Virus record (IMG/VR): IMGVR_UViG_3300018081_000005
Strand: one strand, 5' to 3'
DNA: 57,491 bases
DNA from: a virus
Position numbers and translations under genes: made by a program. Positions 3,729-57,491 of this stretch are shown here, one piece after another. The first letter of the stretch is position 1. Each line of letters begins with the position of its first letter. Under the pieces are notes generated by a model. That model did not search any database, was not told the DNA's origin, and worked only from the letters and a program-made list of their open reading frames with translations.

Positions 3729-4624
3729 GCCAAGCTCACCTCGTTATCATCCAACGTCAGGTCTGTAGGGGATCCGTCTGCCAGCGAGGCCTGATCGTCA
3801 ATCGCCAACGTTACAACATGGTCTGCTGCTAATCCTACGGGCGCGACCGGCGTCAACGTCACGACATAGTCCGTAGTCAACAAGACGGTCCCGATTACTG
3901 TTTCGCCGCCAGAAGCTGCAAATGCAGCGAGCCCAACTCCCAGATTGAATGCGGCGCTACCTTCAGCTACGCCTACACCAGGAGCGTTCCCGATTGCTGT
4001 CAACGTTATGTTGATCCCGGCCTGCGTCGTGCCGGACCCCTTAGCGCGTCCGGTCCCTGCAAGCGCAACCCCGAGAGTAACCGCTGCCGTCCCGCTAGCT
4101 CCACCTACAACGGGCGCAAGTCCGGTTGCTGCAATTGTTACGGTCATGCCTGTTGCAGCTGATCCCTTACCAATAGCCTTTCCTGCGGACAACAATCCAA
4201 CGGTGACACCAATTGCCGCGCTCCCCCGGCGCGTCGCCTTACCGATCGCCGCCAGTCCTACGTTGACAGCAATAGCGCTATTGCCCTTGACTAAAGCCTT
4301 ACCAGTCGCCGCCAACCCTATGGTGGTGCTTACTGCGGATGTACCGCGACCAATAGCCTTACCGGTAGCAGCAATGGTGAGCGTTAAACCTACAGCAACG
4401 GTTCCCTTACTGATTCGAGCGCCAGTTGCAGCCATACCAACATTGACGCCTATGGCTGCCGAACCGCTACCGATTGCAGATCCAACAGCGGCGCTTGATA
4501 TCTCCAAAGCCAGATCGGCGCTACCTACAAAAGTCGCTAACGCTGTGTATCCCCCACCGGGGCTCGGTCTGTTGCCCGGCCATGTAGCGCGTGGGCCAGA
4601 ACGGATACCCGCCTCGCGGGCCAT
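3716..4624 (-). CDS. Gly/Ala/Thr-rich protein built from about 8-9 tandem 20-residue repeats
   Basis: Repeats such as SKGTVAVGLTLTIAATGKAI, GRGTSAVSTTIGLAATGKAL, VKGNSAIAVNVGLAAIGKAT and RRGSAAIGVTVGLLSAGKAI. The same unit occurs in tail protein 37655-39712. TAATG coupling to the upstream gene. The N-terminal ~30 aa look off-composition, so the true start may be further in. Confidence 0.6.
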   Translation of the reverse strand: MAREAGIRSGPRATWPGNRPSPGGGYTALATFVGSADLALEISSAAVGSAIGSGSAAIGVNVGMAATGARISKGTVAVGLTLTIAATGKAIGRGTSAVSTTIGLAATGKALVKGNSAIAVNVGLAAIGKATRRGSAAIGVTVGLLSAGKAIGKGSAATGMTVTIAATGLAPVVGGASGTAAVTLGVALAGTGRAKGSGTTQAGINITLTAIGNAPGVGVAEGSAAFNLGVGLAAFAASGGETVIGTVLLTTDYVVTLTPVAPVGLAADHVVTLAIDDQASLADGSPTDLTLDDNEVSLAWMS

Positions 4625-6172: not shown

Positions 6173-6430
6173 TTACGGCGTCGAGGTCCCGGCCTTGGGC
6201 TCTTGCGGTCCGAGCGTTCCCTCCCCTTGCGCATAGATCTCGCGCAACTGCGCCCCATTCGTAAACAGCTGGTTGCCATCCTCAGCACCGGCGCCAGCCT
6301 TAATCGCTTCGGCATCAGTCAGCCCGGTGATCCGCTTCGCCCCAACCGCGTCATCCGGGATCGGTACTCCAAACGGGTCGGGTAACACAGGCAGTCCAAA
6401 CTCGCTCTCAGTCCGGAAATCCCTAGCCAT
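6173..6430 (-). CDS. Hypothetical protein (85 aa from MARDFRTESEF...)
   Basis: ORF 6173-6454 trimmed to ATG 6430, which is preceded by GAGGAGGA + 4 nt. It is the first gene after the AT-rich island. Confidence 0.5.
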   Translation of the reverse strand: MARDFRTESEFGLPVLPDPFGVPIPDDAVGAKRITGLTDAEAIKAGAGAEDGNQLFTNGAQLREIYAQGEGTLGPQEPKAGTSTP

Positions 6431-6478
6431 TGCATCCTCCTCGTAACCAAACAAAACGACAAACGATCAACAACAACA

Positions 6479-6507
6479 ATCCTACTCTGACTAGGACAGT
6501 AGGACAG
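6479..6507 (-). promoter_or_regulatory. Candidate promoter (proximal): CTGTCC-17 nt-TAGGAT
   Basis: Minus strand reads CTACTGTCCTACTGTCCTAGTCAGAGTAGGAT. The -10-like TAGGAT (6484-6479) is preceded by GAG as in the early promoters. CTGTCC (6507-6502) lies exactly 17 nt upstream. Confidence 0.35.
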
Positions 6508-6555
6508 TAGAACGGTTCTTTTCGGAAACCCTCCCGTAAAGCGCGTCTCGCGTAG

Positions 6556-6571
6556 CGCGCGTATACGCGCG
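6556..6571. repeat. Perfect 16-bp palindrome CGCGCGTATACGCGCG
   Basis: Read directly. It is flanked by further CGCG(T/A) units (gcgcgtctcgcgtagcgcgcgtatacgcgcgtaacg). Confidence 0.9.
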
Positions 6572-6647
6572 TAACGATTGCATTCGTAACCCGTATATAC
6601 GTAGTAGTTTACTTTTAAGTGTTCTAGTATACTAACTGTACTAATAC

Positions 6648-6676
6648 CTTATATATATGGGAATGCAGTAGGACAG
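6648..6676 (-). promoter_or_regulatory. Candidate promoter (distal): CTGTCC-17 nt-TATAAG
   Basis: Second exact copy of CTGTCCTACTG (6676-6666). CTGTCC lies 17 nt upstream of a TA-rich hexamer (6653-6648). Confidence 0.3.
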
Positions 6677-6699
6677 ACAGCAGTACAGTAGTACGGTTT

Positions 6700-9186
6700 C
6701 TAGCCTTTAGTTGCGAGTTTACGCAACCGCAAACCAATACGGACGATGGTTTGCGACCCATCTATGTAGCGACGTTCCTTGCGGTAGTTGTTGCTAGACA
6801 TCGCCCGTCCGAAGGCCGAAAGTGAACTATGGCGTTTATCCTCCTCGCGATTCAGCTCCAACCAGGTCAGATACGAGGTGTGCAATTCCTCGGTCCGCTC
6901 ACAGTATTCAGCACCAAACTCACACGTTTGCCGCATCCATGCATCCATCAGCGAGAGCGATTCGCGAACCTCAAACGTGGTTTCCATAACCTCCATTCCA
7001 GGCCCGTCTAGCCCTTCGCTTTGGTACAGATTCCAACCCTCCACCGCCCAGGCCAGGATGCCGGGTAGTTGAGACTGGTCGCTCAGCTTAGCGCGTAGCG
7101 TGGTATCAATTCGGTCAGGGTCTAGCGACACCACAAATGGCGCCACCTTGAGCCGGCGACGGAGCGCGGCGTCGGCGCCCGGCACGCTAGGCGGCTCATT
7201 GCACATCAACCAAGGGGTAAACGCCGGCACAGCCTCCACATATACATTGGATGCCATACCGCGCGCCGTAAGCCGATCGCCACCGGTCATTCGCTTGATT
7301 GAGTCAACGTGCAGCACGACATCGGAGCTAGCCTCAACCGTATAAAGGAACCGCTTTGGTAACGCCGAGAGCAAGTCAACACGCGGCCCCTCGTCGCGCT
7401 TTTCACGGAACATCTGGAGGTTATAGGTAGCCGCGTACCCGCCTATGGCGGTGGCGAGGACTTCAACAAAGGTACTCTTGCCCGAGGTAGTAGGACCGAT
7501 ACCAATGACCATAGACCGGTCCGGGTTACCGCCCACAAGGGAAGCTCCCACCAGCTTCTGCACCCATTGGCGGGTCTCGGCATCAGGCAGGACTTCCCGG
7601 AGGAATCGCTCCCACAAGGCCGACTTAGCCTTAGCGTCATACGCAACCGGCGCACAGAGCGTAGCCATGTCTCCGTGGACGCGCGGCCGGAAGGCTACCC
7701 CGTTCGGCCCCAGGACTAGCGCGCCGTTAAGCGCGTGCAGAACGCCCCAATCGGCATCAAACTCTTCGGCCCGCGCTCCGAGCCCGCCCAGGTTGCGAGC
7801 AATGGTCTGCATAGCCGCCAGTCGGGGCAGGCCACCACTGGTCTTGACCCAGGACTTGAATGCCTTGAGAGATTCGGGGTCCTCTATGTACGCCGCTTCA
7901 GTCCCCATCTTGCGGACAACTGATATCGCCTGCCGCATCATGAGGCTATTACCCTGGATCCGATTCCAGGTAGCGGTAGCCATATCATACACGACCCAAG
8001 TCTGCCAGGAGTCTACCCAGCGAGCATCCGTTCCAACCGCGTTGGCTAACCTTTGCGCATTCCCGATATCGTCCCGTTCCCAATCAAACGCCGATGACCC
8101 AGCATTCGCCTTCGCCGGCTGGGCGGGCACATCGGAGAACATATCACAGGGGTCGGTCTCCGTTACTGCGCCATCGCCACCATTGCCCCGCCGCATCTCT
8201 TCGCGAACCTTGCCTACGCCTTTGATGACGATTCGGCGCCACTCGCCTTGACCGTCGCGCCTACCCGCCACGGCCGTAAGGAACACGGCCCCTAACTGGC
8301 GGATGGCGTCTTCGGCGCCGGCGTGACCTAATCCGGCGTCCCCCAAGAGCGCCCAAGCCCCGTCGCGCGCCTTATCGTGAGCACCCCCGGCTTCGCCCGC
8401 CCCGCGTACCTCACGGGTGTACTTCGTAAGGGTCCCATGCATAGTAGCGCACATCTCACCGGCGCCGTTAGCTTCAAGCCAAGCCTTTGCGCTGTTGTAG
8501 TCGATATCGCCGGCGTCGCCCGAGCCGCTGTATTCTTGACCATCGGTCAGCCCGGCCACCCATTGGGCGGGTAACATTGGGAGTTCATCAACGGCCGGAA
8601 ACTCATCGGTTACTCGTTGGCCGTCCGGTCGGACCCATATGTAACGTTTGTTCGTCTTGTCGTGCACGGAGGGCATCACGATAACGTATCGGTGATACCA
8701 CTTGATCGTTTCGATCCCAGGCCCAACATCGCGCCACTTCAGACCTTCCGGGACGCGATACAACCGGATACCGGATCCGTCGGTACGGGAAGTCGAAGCC
8801 CAAGTAGGCGGTAGCGCCCCCCAACGCTTCTCAGCGTCCGCTAGTGTTTCGGCGCCAGCCTTACCGCCGTAGAGATCTACGTCAATGCCCAGAACATCAG
8901 GCGGCATACGGAGCGCTATGTTACCGGGCATGAAGGATAGGTTGCCGGCCCGCGCTAGCTCCGGGCGCCCCTTGAACGTACTCCCAGGACGCTTTCGCCC
9001 CAACCAACGGGCTACCTGCTCAGCGGTTACGTACGGTGCCGTACTCCCGGTGACATTGTCCGGGACAGGGGACTTCTCTTTGTATGGTAACGGGACGGGC
9101 GACCAACCGGCATCAAAGTACGTTTGAGCGGTTTGCCAATAGGGCATTGAGCTGGCGTCGGTCACGATAGGGTAGCCTTTCGTCAA
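6700..9186 (-). CDS. Bifunctional primase-polymerase / D5-type (SF3) helicase
   Basis: N-terminal prim-pol motifs (GWSPVPLPYKEKSPVP, GIDVDLYGG, MPSVHDKTNKRYIW). D5_N-like segment (DDIGNAQRLANAVG). Walker A GIGPTTSGKSTF. The listed start is TTG; GTG 9165 or ATG 9147 are alternatives. Confidence 0.85.
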   Translation of the reverse strand: MTKGYPIVTDASSMPYWQTAQTYFDAGWSPVPLPYKEKSPVPDNVTGSTAPYVTAEQVARWLGRKRPGSTFKGRPELARAGNLSFMPGNIALRMPPDVLGIDVDLYGGKAGAETLADAEKRWGALPPTWASTSRTDGSGIRLYRVPEGLKWRDVGPGIETIKWYHRYVIVMPSVHDKTNKRYIWVRPDGQRVTDEFPAVDELPMLPAQWVAGLTDGQEYSGSGDAGDIDYNSAKAWLEANGAGEMCATMHGTLTKYTREVRGAGEAGGAHDKARDGAWALLGDAGLGHAGAEDAIRQLGAVFLTAVAGRRDGQGEWRRIVIKGVGKVREEMRRGNGGDGAVTETDPCDMFSDVPAQPAKANAGSSAFDWERDDIGNAQRLANAVGTDARWVDSWQTWVVYDMATATWNRIQGNSLMMRQAISVVRKMGTEAAYIEDPESLKAFKSWVKTSGGLPRLAAMQTIARNLGGLGARAEEFDADWGVLHALNGALVLGPNGVAFRPRVHGDMATLCAPVAYDAKAKSALWERFLREVLPDAETRQWVQKLVGASLVGGNPDRSMVIGIGPTTSGKSTFVEVLATAIGGYAATYNLQMFREKRDEGPRVDLLSALPKRFLYTVEASSDVVLHVDSIKRMTGGDRLTARGMASNVYVEAVPAFTPWLMCNEPPSVPGADAALRRRLKVAPFVVSLDPDRIDTTLRAKLSDQSQLPGILAWAVEGWNLYQSEGLDGPGMEVMETTFEVRESLSLMDAWMRQTCEFGAEYCERTEELHTSYLTWLELNREEDKRHSSLSAFGRAMSSNNYRKERRYIDGSQTIVRIGLRLRKLATKG

Positions 9187-9253: not shown

Positions 9254-9640
9254 TTAGCAGCCGCAAACCCCATTGCTAGCTGGGATTTGGAAGCAGACCG
9301 GGCACATATCGGCCTTAGTCCTCCGAAGCGGCAATACCTGATCCAATGACACGAAGTCGGACCCCTGGATATCCTCGGCCCCGTCCAAGTCTCCGAGCGA
9401 ATCGGACCGGACATCGTCGCGAGTCGCGCAACAGTTAACCGCAACCAATTGTTCCTCGCTCCCCCTGAACAGCCAATCGCCCTTCCGGTAAGGCTTATCG
9501 CAACGGCCACAAGCGCCTGGCTCAAAAGCCTGTTGGGCGTCAAACAGCTTCGCGACCGGGATGTAATGCTCGTCCTCCATTCCCTTCCAAACGATCGCGC
9601 CGCCCTCGTCCAACTTCGGTTTGGTCTTCGGTTTGGTCAT
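9254..9640 (-). CDS. Cys-rich (putative Zn-binding) protein
   Basis: ORF 9254-9652 trimmed to ATG 9640 (TAATG coupling). CGRC...NCC...MCPVC...VCGC clusters. No family recognised. Confidence 0.5.
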   Translation of the reverse strand: MTKPKTKPKLDEGGAIVWKGMEDEHYIPVAKLFDAQQAFEPGACGRCDKPYRKGDWLFRGSEEQLVAVNCCATRDDVRSDSLGDLDGAEDIQGSDFVSLDQVLPLRRTKADMCPVCFQIPASNGVCGC

Positions 9641-9870
9641 TACCGCTCCCATAGACAGGCGTGCGCGTAGAAGTACCCGGCCCAGAAGTGCGCCATTGCC
9701 TTCTGCTCGGAATCCAATTGCGGCATTGCGTCAATTGCCCGATGGACGTTGATATCGTTCCCCGCTAACGCTTCGAATTGCCCGAGGGCCAGACCGATGT
9801 CGTCGATCAACATCACTATGCCGCCGACTTGTTGCATGAGGAATCGCCCATCCGGCGATAGCTTAGCCAC
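9640..9870 (-). CDS. Hypothetical protein
   Basis: ORF track (76 aa). Balanced composition. Confidence 0.5.
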   Translation of the reverse strand: MAKLSPDGRFLMQQVGGIVMLIDDIGLALGQFEALAGNDINVHRAIDAMPQLDSEQKAMAHFWAGYFYAHACLWER

Positions 9871-14571: not shown

Positions 14572-16836
14572 TTAGTCATTAGGATCAATGGGGACTAACC
14601 ATTTGGTCTGGACTGAGATCCCGAATGCCGCCACCTTGTCGCTCTTGCGGCCCCGAACCAGGATCATGTCTCGCCCAACCACTATGCCATCTATCCGTCC
14701 TTTGAGGCGTGGGAAGTCATATCGATTGATACGGACGTACACATCCTCATCGCCATCATCTACGCATCGGAGGACAACGCTCGTCTTGAGGTCCGGCCGC
14801 TTCATATCCCGCAGGATGTCCTTGACCTCGGTCCCATAGCGGGCTCGTTTGTTCTCTACATAGTCCTGGTAGTTGCGCTCCAAAACAAATCCTAGGAACA
14901 CCACTTCCAATTCGCTAACGTTTAGCAGTTCATCGCTCACATGCGTAGGCTTAGGCAAGCCGGCTTCGGGCAACCATTCTCGAACGCGCCCCATATCCTC
15001 TTCCAGGCGGCGAAGCCCGAACGGATCGTCCACATTGACTAATGGCCGCATCTTGTCCAGGATCTTAGGACCAATCCCCGATACCGTAAGCAATTCCTCC
15101 ACCTGAGTGAATCCGCCGCGCTCCGCCTCCGCCGCCGCTATCTTGGCGGCTACTACCGGCCCAACTCCGGGTAGGGTCTCGTATCCCGCCACGAGCTCGC
15201 CTTTACGCGGAGACGACCAACCGATGGCGCTTTCGCCTAGGGTGACTCCCCGGACCCGAACCTTATGCCGTTCAGCATCCCTTACCAAAATGGGACGTTG
15301 TGCGTCCGGCGTCCGCTCCAGCTTGATCTGATAGAACTCAGTGGTGTAGTGTTGCTTGAACCATTGGCACCAGTATCCGATGATACTGTACGAAAGCGAG
15401 TGACTATATACGAACGCATACGAGGCCGAGGTAACAACGCGCTCCCAAACCTTGGCGGCTACCTCTCTTGAGACCCCGTTGAGCTTCATAGCCGTAGTGA
15501 TGAAGTCTTCCGAGGAAGCGTTGAACTGAGCCTCGCCTAGTTTCTGACTGATGATCCGCCGAATATCATGTACCCGCCCAATGGGCAGGCCACCGAATTC
15601 CCCGAGCGCATGCAACACCTGTTCCTGATAGATGATCTGACCTCTTGTGGGCGCCGCGATCCGATCAACAATGGGATGGATCTTCGGAATCTCCATCAGG
15701 CCGCGCTTGATGTTGATGAACTCGGTGGTAGTCCCAGAGAACAACGGACCTGGCCGCGAGAGCGCGTTGACGTGAATGAGCTCGTAAATGTCTTCGGGCT
15801 TGACCTCACGGCAGACCAGGCGGGTAGCTCTCCCTTCGAATTGGAAAACGCCAACCACATCTGCGCGGACAAACGCATCAAATGTCAGCTTGTCGTTCAA
15901 CGGGAGCGCGTACAACTCCTCCAGACTCATTCCAGTCAGCCTTAGCATCTCCGCTATCTCGCCCATGGTGGTGAGACCCAAGACATCGATCTTCATCAGT
16001 CCTAGGTACTCAGCATCCTTCTTGTCCACCGAGACCGCTGCAATCGGACGGCCATGAACATCACGCGAGTACATAGCGCAAACGTCTGCGATCGGAGTAT
16101 CGGAGATCACCAGCCCGGCCGCGTGGGTACTCATCCCACGGTAGTTGCCTTCAAGCGCAATAGCCATACGTAGCGCGGGATACTCCGCCAGGACCGCCGC
16201 CGCTAGCGGGAAGGAATCAAAGGTGTCCACAAGAGAGGCGTCCGCGCGAGAGTCGCCGCCGGACCGCTCAATGATCATCCCCTTGACAGTCTCCAGTGGA
16301 CCATATGGGATGCTGTAGACCCGCCCAACGTCCGTGAGGCTATTCTTCCCCTTGTACTTGGTGAAGGTCCCGATGTTAGCGACACAGTCCGGCCCCCAAC
16401 GATTGACCGCATAAGTCCGGACCTCGTGCCGCCGGACGTCATCAAAGTCAACGTCAATGTCCGGTAGGTCAACACGGGTAGGGTCAATGAACCGGGTGAA
16501 GTCTGTAAGCGGGAACTGGAGCGGATCGGGTTCGGTAATGCGAAGTAGGTAACACACCAAACTGGCCGCTGAGCTACCGCGCCCAGGGCCCACCGCGATG
16601 CCTTGGTCCTTAGCCCAGCGAACGATATCGGACACCAATAGGAAGTAGCTTACGAAGTCCTTGGAGATGATGAGTTCCATCTCTCGGTGCATTTGCTCCA
16701 GATACTCCGCTTGGCGGGTCTTGAGGTTGCGATTCCCTTGCGCGAACCGGTATCGCCATCCTTCCCGAAGCCAAGCCCACAGGATTTCTACCGGTTCAAC
16801 GTTCAAGGTCTTCGGTCGGACCATTGTCATTACCAT
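14572..16836 (-). CDS. dnaE: DNA polymerase III alpha (DnaE-type) catalytic core, lacking the PHP domain
   Basis: FVSYFLLVSDIVRWAKDQGIAVGPGRGSSAASLVCYLLRITEPDP...DLPDIDVDFDD is the DnaE palm signature. HhH segment PGVGPVVAAKI...VSGIGPKILDKM. C-terminal OB-like region. Confidence 0.9.
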   Translation of the reverse strand: MVMTMVRPKTLNVEPVEILWAWLREGWRYRFAQGNRNLKTRQAEYLEQMHREMELIISKDFVSYFLLVSDIVRWAKDQGIAVGPGRGSSAASLVCYLLRITEPDPLQFPLTDFTRFIDPTRVDLPDIDVDFDDVRRHEVRTYAVNRWGPDCVANIGTFTKYKGKNSLTDVGRVYSIPYGPLETVKGMIIERSGGDSRADASLVDTFDSFPLAAAVLAEYPALRMAIALEGNYRGMSTHAAGLVISDTPIADVCAMYSRDVHGRPIAAVSVDKKDAEYLGLMKIDVLGLTTMGEIAEMLRLTGMSLEELYALPLNDKLTFDAFVRADVVGVFQFEGRATRLVCREVKPEDIYELIHVNALSRPGPLFSGTTTEFINIKRGLMEIPKIHPIVDRIAAPTRGQIIYQEQVLHALGEFGGLPIGRVHDIRRIISQKLGEAQFNASSEDFITTAMKLNGVSREVAAKVWERVVTSASYAFVYSHSLSYSIIGYWCQWFKQHYTTEFYQIKLERTPDAQRPILVRDAERHKVRVRGVTLGESAIGWSSPRKGELVAGYETLPGVGPVVAAKIAAAEAERGGFTQVEELLTVSGIGPKILDKMRPLVNVDDPFGLRRLEEDMGRVREWLPEAGLPKPTHVSDELLNVSELEVVFLGFVLERNYQDYVENKRARYGTEVKDILRDMKRPDLKTSVVLRCVDDGDEDVYVRINRYDFPRLKGRIDGIVVGRDMILVRGRKSDKVAAFGISVQTKWLVPIDPND

Positions 16837-17738
16837 ACTAGGTCGGCCTCCGTTCCCTTATAGCGGAACCGTTCTGCTTTGGGCAACGTCACGTTACAAC
16901 GCTCCGCTACCTCAGCGGTATTCGCCATGATCTGCTGCGCTTGTTTGCGCTTGTAGCCTATCCCGCGTAACCGCTCTAATACATACTCATCATTAATAGG
17001 TGGGTAATCCGGGACGTCATATTCCCAGCTTGACAGCTGCTTGGCTATAGTATTGTTCCCGCGACCGGCAGCGTGGAGAAGCGCCCGCATCTCGCCTTGC
17101 CCCGGCCTAATGGTATGGACGTCGAACGTGACGACCAACGGGATCCTATGTAGCTCCGAAATCCGCCGGTATGCCTCCGCTATCAGCTTGGCGCGCGGGA
17201 ACTCCGGGAATGCTTGGACCTCAAGATAGTATCGATCACCGAACAGCGCACGGAAGTTGGTCGCTACCCGCTGGGCCTTCTTGAAGCTAGCATCCTCTTC
17301 AGGGATGTCCTTCCCGCCCAAGAGCGTACAAGCTAGGAGGCTGTCGCTACATCCGCTCAAGCAGATCAGGCCTTCATCATGATCCGCGAGCATCTGGCCG
17401 CTCACCGTTGGGTAGTAATAGAACCCCTCCGCCCAAGAGCGGGTAACGATCCTATTGAGGTTAGCGTAACCAGTCTGGTCGGCCGCCAATAGCGTCAAGT
17501 GGAACTTGCGCTGGGAATCTGACTGCGGGTGAGTGTATGCCTCCAAACCGAAGATTGGTTTGATCCCAGCCTTCTGTGCGGCTTTCTCCAATCCTACATG
17601 GGAACTGACGTTGCCGTGCTCCGTAGCCGCAATGGCGGGTAACTCCAGTTCAACAGCGCGCTCAACGTGCTGAGCCGGCGTCCCGAACCCATCCATGTAG
17701 CTGAACGTCGTATGGTGGTGGAGGCTAGGCGTCAGCAT
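16830..17738 (-). CDS. dnaE: PHP-domain protein = N-terminal domain of DnaE, encoded as a separate ORF
   Basis: LHHHTTFSYMDGFGTP...AATEHGNVSSHV...PIFGLEAY is the DnaE PHP motif set. It ends in TAA, overlapping the ATG of the core ORF (ATGGTAA), in the -1 frame relationship. Confidence 0.85.
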   Translation of the reverse strand: MLTPSLHHHTTFSYMDGFGTPAQHVERAVELELPAIAATEHGNVSSHVGLEKAAQKAGIKPIFGLEAYTHPQSDSQRKFHLTLLAADQTGYANLNRIVTRSWAEGFYYYPTVSGQMLADHDEGLICLSGCSDSLLACTLLGGKDIPEEDASFKKAQRVATNFRALFGDRYYLEVQAFPEFPRAKLIAEAYRRISELHRIPLVVTFDVHTIRPGQGEMRALLHAAGRGNNTIAKQLSSWEYDVPDYPPINDEYVLERLRGIGYKRKQAQQIMANTAEVAERCNVTLPKAERFRYKGTEADLVW

Positions 17739-22628: not shown

Positions 22629-22665
22629 TGTTCCCTCTCTCGGTTCCTAACGTAATGCTACTCTC
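22629..22665 (-). promoter_or_regulatory. Candidate promoter with GAG-TAGCAT -10 element (no leader hairpin)
   Basis: Minus strand reads AACGAGAGTAGCATTACGTTAGGAACCGAGAGAGGGAACAATG, sharing the GAGTAnnnT core of the early promoters. The -35 is poor. Confidence 0.3.
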
Positions 22666-24712: not shown

Positions 24713-24768
24713 GGATTCCCTCTCTCGTAACAGGTAGCCTACCCGCTAGGCGGCCGTGGGGCTAGGTG

Positions 24769-37362: not shown

Positions 37363-37406
37363 TCTCTCACCCCTATCTCTTGTTACGGAGTCTACTCGAG
37401 CAGCCG

Positions 37407-57224: not shown

Positions 57225-57391
57225 TTGATCACCACCGTGAACCTTGAAACCATGAATGCACGATCCTTCAATTGCGGGACTTCAAGCCTCTCGCCCGGCT
57301 TCCCGTTCAGCAGAAGCGGACCGATGTGCGCGGCCGCCAACCATTCTCGGCCATCTTCATCCCGGAACGTCAGGATGGCATTCGCTTCCAT
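57221..57391 (-). CDS. Unlisted 56-aa ORF (MEANAILTFRDEDGREWLAAAHIGPLLLNGKPGERLEV...)
   Basis: Hand translation. Its ATG overlaps (TAATG) the stop of the junction-spanning copy of ORF 23-238. Third-position G/C about 68%. Confidence 0.35.
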   Translation of the reverse strand: MEANAILTFRDEDGREWLAAAHIGPLLLNGKPGERLEVPQLKDRAFMVSRFTVVIK

Positions 57392-57491
57392 TACTTGTCC
57401 TCACAACCACAAGTCCTGGTATGCCTATCCCCGTGCTTGCCATCCGGACCTAGCGGACGGTGCCGATCGCATTCATCAATCAGCCGCTGTA
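57369..57491. repeat. Terminal direct repeat, copy 2 (identical to 1-123)
   Basis: See copy 1. It contains a duplicate of the 3' end of ORF 23-238. Confidence 0.95.

Follow-up and report, generated by a model that had tools for sequence, protein, structure and literature searches.

What is the function of the one long stretch of non-coding DNA in the genome of a tailed phage that is otherwise densely packed with genes? The question is raised by IMG/VR virus record IMGVR_UViG_3300018081_000005, a DNA of 57,491 nucleotides (nt) that is referred to here in its entirety as the window. Within it, a gap of 269 nt separates the stop codon of a primase-helicase gene (6700) from the ATG of the next gene (6430), both read on the minus strand. 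A preliminary description of the gap had noted a duplicated 11-mer, two promoter-like spacings, and a palindrome, and had offered two explanations, namely activator-dependent late promoters with the 11-mer as the activator site or, alternatively, an origin of replication. On the basis of its sequence and by analogy with characterized systems, we consider it on balance probable that the gap is the iteron-type replication origin of the phage, served by the primase-helicase encoded directly upstream. This putative origin likely overlaps a promoter for the downstream operon. To our knowledge, which is based on a limited literature search, the replication origins of actinobacteriophages are largely unmapped.

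The gap differs from the remainder of the genome in composition and in duplex stability. The only 100-nt segments with a GC fraction below 0.42 fall inside it, and it is the sole stretch of at least 120 nt without a minus-strand open reading frame (ORF) of 45 or more residues, in agreement with its earlier characterization as the one long AT-rich, gene-free tract. The least stable 60-bp duplex of the 57.4-kb circular genome is located at 6594-6653, with a nearest-neighbour ΔG of -64.3 kcal/mol. The mean for all 60-mers of the genome is -90.9 (standard deviation 4.6) and the next-weakest value is -74.5, which places this duplex 5.8 standard deviations from the mean. It is contained in an AT-rich segment (6594-6665), of which positions 6604-6665 have a GC content of 27%, and this segment is proposed to serve as the DNA unwinding element.

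The exact 11-mer CTGTCCTACTG is found on the minus strand at 6666-6676 and 6497-6507, and a partial copy, CTGTCCTAG, lies at 6491-6499. Exactly 17 nt separate CTGTCC from TATAAG (6653-6648) in the first case and from TAGGAT (6484-6479) in the second. All of these positions, along with those of the palindrome and the limits of the gap, had been given correctly in the preliminary description. It had also reported seeing the 11-mer nowhere else, and a search of the window indeed yielded no further exact copy; matches with up to two mismatches number 12 genome-wide versus 11 expected, which is the chance level. Although the duplication is present, it is not significant by itself because approximately 20 loci in the genome carry exact repeats of at least 11 nt within 300 nt (shuffled sequences contain a mean of 6 repeat pairs). 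Likewise, the number of repeated 8-mers with up to one mismatch per 270-nt segment does not discriminate, the gap having 6 copies and GC-rich coding DNA up to 7. The real signal resides in a shorter unit. The 11-mers are parts of runs of an 8-bp unit, CYGTNCTA, that repeats with an 8-bp tandem period. When both strands are counted, this unit occurs 14 times in 57.5 kb, with six of the copies in the 269-nt gap and at most one in every other segment of that length. By the same count, there is no second iteron cluster anywhere in the window.

The repeats begin 3 nt past the stop codon of the primase-helicase gene, and the 9-10 units are arranged in three clusters (forward, reversed, and forward) that bracket the least stable duplex. 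The distal forward cluster, at 6666-6696 on the minus strand, is composed of CCGTACTA (6689-6696), CTGTACTG (6681-6688), an intervening CTGT, and CTGTCCTA (6669-6676), and it contains the first 11-mer. The middle cluster, which had previously been missed, occupies 6619-6643 on the plus strand and consists of three reversed, degenerate iterons, GTGTTCTA, GTATACTA, and CTGTACTA, positioned within the AT-rich segment. The proximal forward cluster, at 6492-6515 on the minus strand, reads CCGTTCTA, CTGTCCTA, CTGTCCTA as an exact 8-bp tandem and contains both the second 11-mer and the partial copy. In other words, an AT-rich centre is flanked on either side by short iterons of opposite orientation. 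Read in the sense of transcription, the elements follow one another in the order forward units, 25 nt of AT-rich sequence, reversed units, further AT-rich sequence, a cluster of TACG motifs with the palindrome, the motif TTTCCGAAAA, forward units, the -10-like element GAGTAGGAT, a T/G-rich leader, and finally a ribosome-binding site and the ATG.

Is this anatomy peculiar to one genome? The DNA downstream of homologous primase genes was collected from IMG/VR, JGI metagenomes, and Logan assemblies, and approximately 20 distinct lineages with protein identities of 36-77% were compared. Roughly 100 homologous primase-helicases were found, and at least 14 distinct iteron types accompany them. Every full-length uncultured relative has a non-coding gap of 205-425 bp in the same place (205-529 bp at 27-77% identity when the cultured phage Fowlmouth, discussed below, is included), and an origin-like region directly downstream of the helicase gene is present at the same position in about 20 distinct relatives. 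The elements always follow the same order, starting with a forward unit and continuing through AT-rich DNA and two reversed tandem units to a central region, after which come two forward units in tandem and a -10-like element. A reversed tandem pair or triplet likewise occupies the position of the middle cluster in the relatives, and the more distant of these possess an additional upstream array. Tandem units recur every 8 bp in most of the uncultured lineages.

The repeat itself is lineage-specific, so that the expectation that related phages conserve the boxes holds for their layout but not for their sequence. Whereas the unit is CYGTNCTA in the window, it is GGGCT / AACTGGG in L003, TGGGATA in L099, GGGGTGA in L100, GGGTGTCA in L101, GGGGTGC in L005, CCAGATAC in both L025 and L031, CCAGAGAC in L026, CAGCTAC in L024, CTAGACG in L021, and GACGAGACG in L028, and further variants are found in the remaining lineages. 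Within each genome the clusters agree with one another, and the repeat is rare or absent in the flanks; CCAGATAC, for example, occurs 8 times in the gap and not once in 8 kb of flanking sequence. Because the order and the 8-bp period are constant while the repeats differ, the comparison points to one conserved binding-protein architecture with drifting specificity. Several features are independent of iteron type, namely a motif resembling CTCTTACGTATA, the TACG cluster, a palindrome (8 of 22 relatives), a TTYCnGAAAA motif, and the sequence G(G/A)GTAGAAT. A further lineage-independent motif, TTGATA/TTGGTA, follows the distal repeats in many relatives and is lost or degenerate in the window.

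A cultured phage extends the series. Mycobacterium phage Fowlmouth (MH834613) encodes a homologous primase/polymerase (27% identity over 90% of the length), the gene for which is followed by an unannotated gap of 529 bp with an AT-rich centre (61993-62521, corresponding to 4213-4741 of L104). The repeat GTAACCGAA occurs there in five forward and three reversed copies, all of them inside the gap, and a second repeat, CAGGTCAGAG, is present as well. Judged by its sequence, the Fowlmouth gap is the cultured, testable counterpart of the gap in the window.

The protein proposed to be the initiator is encoded at 6700-9186 on the minus strand and comprises 828 residues when read from the longest start. 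It consists of a Prim-Pol domain, a D5_N domain, a superfamily 3 (SF3) P-loop helicase, and a predicted C-terminal winged helix, and the gene adjacent to the gap is in this respect that of an SF3 (D5-like) helicase. Matches were obtained to Pfam families PF09250 (Prim-Pol) and PF08706 (D5_N) and to PHROG 1156 (E=3.6e-141). The family profile also matches C962R of African swine fever virus (ASFV), poxvirus D5/E5, and PriRep5 of the staphylococcal pathogenicity island SaPI5 (7OLA, E=7e-5), and homologues are referred to in public sources as 'P4 family phage/plasmid primase-like'. The C-terminal domain, delineated by approximately residues 745-825 (6712-6954, minus strand), is confidently predicted to be a winged helix with the order H-strand-H-H-strand-strand and is the candidate reader of the iterons. 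In the AlphaFold2 model, the predicted local distance difference test score (pLDDT) is about 87-97 per 10-residue block. The top Foldseek matches are the DNA-binding domains of RFX proteins (1dp7, E=6e-4, TM score 0.74; 8zjr), followed by the C-terminal region of the ASFV PrimPol. Among close relatives, this domain and the linker between Prim-Pol and D5_N are the least conserved parts of the primase.

Which protein changes together with the repeats was addressed by expressing the similarity of two gaps as the repeated 7-mers shared between the genomes, in a small sample of non-independent pairs in which linkage was partly controlled. Gap similarity correlates with the similarity of the helicase part of the primase (Spearman 0.58) and of its C-terminal part (0.67), the small sample and physical linkage being confounding factors, versus 0.05 for the Prim-Pol domain and 0.05 for the 85-residue protein encoded immediately downstream. 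Individual genomes are informative in this regard. The window and L094 have CTGTCCTAC iterons in common and mutually closest primases, together with different downstream alleles (38% identity), and the window and L101 have a common downstream allele (67%) together with unrelated iterons. In the L025 group the identity of the Prim-Pol domain is flat at 0.77-0.83, while that of the C-terminal domain is 0.60 for the pair with the same iteron versus 0.36-0.53 for pairs with different ones. When the second strand of the wing is compared by eye with the iteron core in this small sample, QT.VR.G accompanies GTNCT, YYRMG accompanies TGGG, and W(Y/F)RTG accompanies CCAGATAC, a grouping that is suggestive only.

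Taken as an origin, the gap would be expected to function as follows. The winged-helix domain of the primase-helicase would bind the 8-bp CYGTNCTA units in the forward, reversed, and forward clusters, oligomers would form on either side of the AT-rich segment and melt the least stable duplex, the SF3 helicase would then load itself onto the opened DNA, and the Prim-Pol domain would prime there. Of the two explanations offered beforehand, that of iterons and an AT-rich element beside a primase-helicase gene is the better supported because the layout is conserved, the repeats are confined to this locus, a winged-helix domain is predicted, and the arrangement matches the origins of SaPI elements and of P4.

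Additional elements lie between the iterons. At 6538-6607 on the minus strand is the densest TACG cluster of the genome (7 TACG in 70 nt), which opens with a relative of the family-wide CTCTTACGTATA motif. In the gaps of 22 relatives, TACG/CGTA occurs 152 times versus 45 expected, with a strand bias and regardless of iteron type. These motifs might be priming sites. The second-densest cluster of the window, at approximately 36.6 kb, was considered as a counterpart and dismissed, as it lies within coding sequence and is unrelated. The position of the 16-bp palindrome, CGCGCGTATACGCGCG, was confirmed at 6556-6571. A palindrome with arms of at least 7 bp is present at the same relative position in 8 of the 22 relatives, each of these being one of the closer relatives or L025; the sequences differ, and only L003 has that of the window. 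Because they have no loop, such palindromes fit recognition of double-stranded DNA better than an RNA hairpin. The motif TTTCCGAAAA at 6519-6528 (minus strand) has variants of the form TTYCnGAAAA at the same place in several relatives, as judged by eye.

Transcription signals are also found in the gap. The -10-like element GAGTAGGAT, at 6479-6487 on the minus strand, is the proposed promoter of the downstream operon, which it probably drives. It is a -10-only element of actinobacterial style with no recognisable -35, and a scan for sigma-70 promoters (-35 and -10 elements spaced by 16-18 nt with at least 9 of 12 consensus matches) returned no site on either strand between 5800 and 7400. The last iteron ends 7 nt upstream of TAGGAT, and in the closer relatives its end invariably precedes a conserved -10-like element by 4-11 nt; G(G/A)GTAG(A/G)AT-like elements occupy the same position in about 11 relatives. 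Since the proximal iteron triplet is situated directly upstream of this conserved element, the downstream operon probably has its promoter in the gap as well, and occupancy by the initiator may modulate this promoter. Motifs similar to the element, of the form G(A/G)GTAGnnT, occur on the minus strand at 37389-37397, 24736-24744, and 22655-22663. Each of these lies in an ORF-free gap, at a distance of 23-35 nt from the start of a downstream ORF that has a purine-rich ribosome-binding site, and from their sequences those at 37397, 24744, and 22663 are probably other promoters of the phage. None carries an iteron box, and the box is accordingly not a general promoter element. Thus, of the proposal of activator-dependent late promoters, the proximal -10 finds support in its conservation in most of the relatives, but the box is absent from the other -10-like sites and the distal promoter is not conserved. 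Indeed, at the position of the latter (CTGTCC-17-TATAAG), the relatives have TTGATA/TTGGTA.

The T/G-rich leader, TTGTTGTTG..., extends over 6431-6478 on the minus strand and includes the ribosome-binding site GAGGAGG at 6436-6442. A structured leader of about 170 nt had also been suggested, a proposal that the folding calculations do not bear out. Compared with shuffled sequences, the gap has a z-score of -0.83 when folded as DNA and +0.34 when folded as RNA, which amounts to no extra stability, and a consensus fold computed for the RNAs of 10 relatives amounts to -0.09 kcal/mol, with no compensatory pair and no covariation. Searched up to E=10, Rfam yielded no family within the gap. A scan for intrinsic terminators was negative for the gap, whose palindrome lacks a loop and has only TTT behind it.

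An extension of the origin model links these elements to gene expression. The primase-helicase bound to the proximal iterons would gate the promoter of the operon that continues into the packaging and structural genes, either by replacing the -35 contact or by occluding the promoter until the origin fires, such that late gene expression would be tied to occupancy or firing of the origin. Priming sites for the Prim-Pol domain would come from the TACG cluster that the family has in the unwound zone. As a whole, such a replication-coupled transcriptional switch is speculative, and we view it as rather improbable in this complete form.

The principal alternative is that the gap is purely a transcription-control region in which the repeats are operators for a phage-specific activator or repressor that governs one or two promoters at the junction of the replication module and the operon leading into the packaging and structural genes, with no origin present. 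It would account for the conserved -10-like element 4-11 nt past the last proximal repeat in the closer relatives, for the recurrence of that -10 type in three other gaps, and for the TTGATA/TTGGTA motif behind the distal repeats in lineages of every iteron type. The circular genome would allow a late operon to start at the gap, and fast co-divergence of operators and regulators is known from phage immunity regions. A regulator to occupy such operators has not come to light, however. The 85-residue protein downstream and the zinc-ribbon-like, Cys-rich protein of 132 residues encoded upstream of the primase gene were both considered as repeat-binding partners and rejected, the pattern of their similarities not following iteron type, and no repressor or integrase was seen among the ORFs scanned, a scan that was not exhaustive. 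Moreover, the box occurs at no other promoter-like site of the genome, the sigma-70 consensus scan is without a promoter, and the distal -35-like motif is degenerate in the window. Finally, 8-10 sites in three clusters and both orientations around the most meltable DNA, beside a primase-helicase gene, are more than a promoter needs. We regard transcription control alone as unlikely, though deserving of serious attention. Other cis-acting sites are also assembled from repeats, and the gap could instead be a packaging site, a parC/parS-like centromere for partition, or an attP that carries arm-type sites. Centromeres of the parC type typically consist of a promoter flanked by arrays of short repeats, direct and inverted, and in attP sites the AT-rich core lies between arm-type repeats. 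The flanking genes, however, contain no family match to ParA, ParM, ParR, an integrase, or a small terminase subunit; searches of Pfam and PHROG gave no partition-gene match in the ten ORFs downstream or in those scanned upstream. More than 6 kb separate the gap from the terminase gene downstream, and the constant partner of the gap across the relatives is the primase-helicase, all of which makes a site of this kind quite improbable.

It could also be argued that transcription of the gap from the distal promoter produces a structured 5' leader or a small RNA, with the palindrome functioning as a terminator or regulatory hairpin, as the preliminary description had in part proposed. There are upstream promoter-like hexamers, for example TTCCCA-17-TACAGT (identified by eye), and TTT follows the GC-rich palindrome. 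Given the loop-less palindromes and the negative results from the Rfam, terminator, shuffling, and consensus-fold analyses, we attach very little probability to a structured RNA. Least credible of all is that the gap is a spacer without function and that chance or slippage produced its repeats. The 11-mer duplication considered in isolation is within the range seen elsewhere in the genome, but the layout is kept down to 27% protein identity, the clusters agree within each genome, and the composition and duplex stability are unique. Two further candidates were rejected. A target-site duplication left by an inserted mobile element does not fit repeats that are multiple and in both orientations, in a region present in all relatives down to 27% identity. 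Host DnaA boxes fail as a family-wide explanation, the relatives having unrelated repeats; CTGTCCTA loosely resembles the sequence TTGTCCACA, which we take to be the actinobacterial DnaA box.

Several observations weigh against the gap being an origin served by its neighbour. Relatives whose iterons differ have almost the same putative recognition helix, and several wing residues differ between the window and L094 although these two share iterons, leaving the link between the C-terminal domain and the iterons weak. Physical linkage could explain part of the correlation between repeats and primase. The conserved -10-like and TTGATA-like motifs place transcription signals in the same region, so that the repeats could be purely regulatory. 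A plot of GC skew had been recommended for locating the origin; the cumulative skew proved to be monotonic with no switch at the gap, a result that is uninformative rather than contrary because nearly all genes are on one strand. Lastly, the distant cultured relatives WhoseManz and ChewyVIII (30-32% identity) lack such a gap, and the association of gap and helicase is therefore not universal for the helicase family. In those Gordonia and Rhodococcus phages whose annotated primases are nearest, the primase gene and the lysis genes are convergent and no iteron gap is present. In Rhodococcus phage ChewyVIII, a gap of 123 nt (4087-4209 of L102) contains only a long perfect hairpin, GAACCCCCGGAGTC...GACTCCGGGGGTTC, and no iterons; the hairpin is probably a bidirectional terminator.

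With respect to genome context, the window begins and ends with the same 123 nt (1-123 and 57369-57491), and the assembly is thus taken to be circular, or terminally redundant, with 57,368 unique bases. Nearly all genes are on the minus strand, in the order terminase, portal, capsid, tape measure, and tail; helicase, exonuclease, Sak4-type annealing protein, DNA polymerase, and thymidylate synthase; and primase-helicase. The genes at the low-coordinate end continue across the circle junction into the terminase genes at the high-coordinate end. Given a circular contig, the operon starting at the gap would pass ten genes and the junction before entering the terminase and structural genes. The ten ORFs have no confident family match in Pfam or PHROG, a weak, sub-threshold beta-helix match being the sole hit. 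From this gene order, the gap marks the border between the replication module and an operon leading into the packaging genes, and its placement at an early/late junction is plausible. A near-identity search of GenBank phages gave no match to the DNA and hence no close cultured relative, and for this reason no annotation could be borrowed. The GenBank homologues of the capsid (at most 42% identity) and of the primase (at most 32%) all come from actinobacteriophages, on which account the host is probably an actinobacterium.

The first gene of the downstream operon, at 6173-6430 on the minus strand, encodes the 85-residue protein, which has a conserved N-terminus, MAR...SEFGLP, and no family match. 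Among the window and the homologues in L094-L101, two allele types of this protein exist, VLPDPFG...ITGLTDAEAIKAGAG and SPMPV...GGLPAATGDAEA. Because the distribution of alleles cuts across the phylogeny of primase and iterons, a recombination breakpoint is suggested between the proximal iterons and this gene. In L097 (approximately 4176-4341) and L098 (4176-4358) only, an extra Cys-rich ORF of about 60 residues with several CxxC motifs is located between the origin-like region and the conserved small gene. Directly upstream of the primase gene, the ORF of 132 residues (9254-9652, minus strand) contains the zinc-ribbon-like motif CxxC...CC and is very variable, with 38-49% identity between relatives whose primases are 62-77% identical. 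The DNA polymerase appears to be split into overlapping minus-strand ORFs at 14572-16836 and 16830-17738; the ORF of 302 residues corresponds to the N-terminal portion of the polymerase family in PHROG, and the ORF of 754 residues to the remainder. A genuinely split gene, a frameshift, or a mistake in assembly could each account for this. Further exact direct repeats, local and 11-14 nt long, were noted at 52597-52610/52699-52712, 29088/29217, and 44174-44187/44471-44484; they are AAACTGATCCTCAT, TCTGGTAGATC, and a 14-mer within the tape-measure gene.

The locus provides a concrete, sequence-defined candidate origin for a large and mostly uncultured family of phages of about 57-61 kb. Origins of this kind are already known from other mobile elements, and no new principle is involved. 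What is of interest here is the breadth of the family, the fast turnover of iteron specificity against a constant 8-bp period, the dense TACG cluster, the unchanging placement of the iterons beside the promoter-like element, and the existence of a cultured phage for experiments. If the gap is indeed an origin, the family would offer a natural series of initiator/iteron specificities for studies of winged-helix recognition, and origin fragments could be employed in phage engineering or as origin decoys for phage-encoded resistance (PER).

How does the gap compare with characterized origins? Phage lambda is similar in that its origin, like the gap, contains iterons, an AT-rich stretch, and a palindrome in succession, and in lambda-type phages iteron specificity co-diverges with the initiator. 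The lambda origin lies inside the O gene, however, and its initiator is not a helicase, the host DnaB being recruited via the P protein, whereas in the window the repeats lie between genes and the adjacent protein is a helicase. The primases of Streptococcus thermophilus phages are distant homologues of the helicase half of the protein described here (119 Streptococcus records). In one such phage, Sfi21, a short non-coding, repeat-bearing element in the replication module, the PER element, is reported to have the properties of an origin (PMC6356513, citing Foley et al. 1998). It shares no sequence similarity with the gap, and its host belongs to another phylum.

In the Sulfolobus plasmid pRN1, the origin lies 3' of ORF904, a gene that encodes Prim-Pol, SF3 helicase, and winged-helix domains, and similar arrangements have been noted in some bacteriophages (PMC4234260). 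The domain order and the position of an essential origin element just 3' of the gene correspond to those described here. Unlike the window, which has iterons and no significant stem-loop, pRN1 employs a stem-loop of approximately 100 nt without iterons. The alpha protein of P4 is reported to bind the origin repeats through a winged helix, and in P4 as in pRN1 the protein works at a site beside its gene or not far from it (PMC4234260). As in the protein encoded by the window, primase, SF3-like helicase, and C-terminal winged helix (here a prediction) are combined in one polypeptide, but the P4 primase is of the bacterial Toprim type rather than the archaeo-eukaryotic Prim-Pol type. The P4 origin is made up of octamer repeats, the type I iterons, in both orientations, as is the gap, and it is not known to lie directly 3' of the alpha gene. 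P4 also needs a second, distant site, crr, whereas the window has a single iteron cluster region.

The closest correspondence is to the SaPI elements, the origins of which lie directly downstream of rep and contain 6-12 short iterons that flank an AT-rich centre on either side in opposing orientations; Rep, a self-loading SF3 helicase, reads these iterons with its C-terminal winged helix (PMC9371898). The gap likewise adjoins a helicase gene and displays short, opposed iterons around an AT-rich centre, and its neighbour pairs an SF3 helicase with a predicted C-terminal winged helix. In SaPI5 the helicase is, in addition, fused to a primase, and specificities differ between the SaPI elements, as the repeats do among the relatives of the window. 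There are differences, to be sure. A SaPI is a satellite, whereas the window is the complete 57-kb genome of a tailed phage with its own DNA polymerase. Its units are 8 bp in length with a strict 8-bp tandem period as compared with 5-6 bp, they form three clusters with the reversed one inside the AT-rich part, and the region has a built-in TACG cluster, palindrome, and promoter-like element; the relationship in sequence is remote. If the gap functions as proposed, the scheme of a self-loading primase-helicase followed by a downstream iteron origin, as represented by SaPI and P4, would extend to full-size tailed phages.

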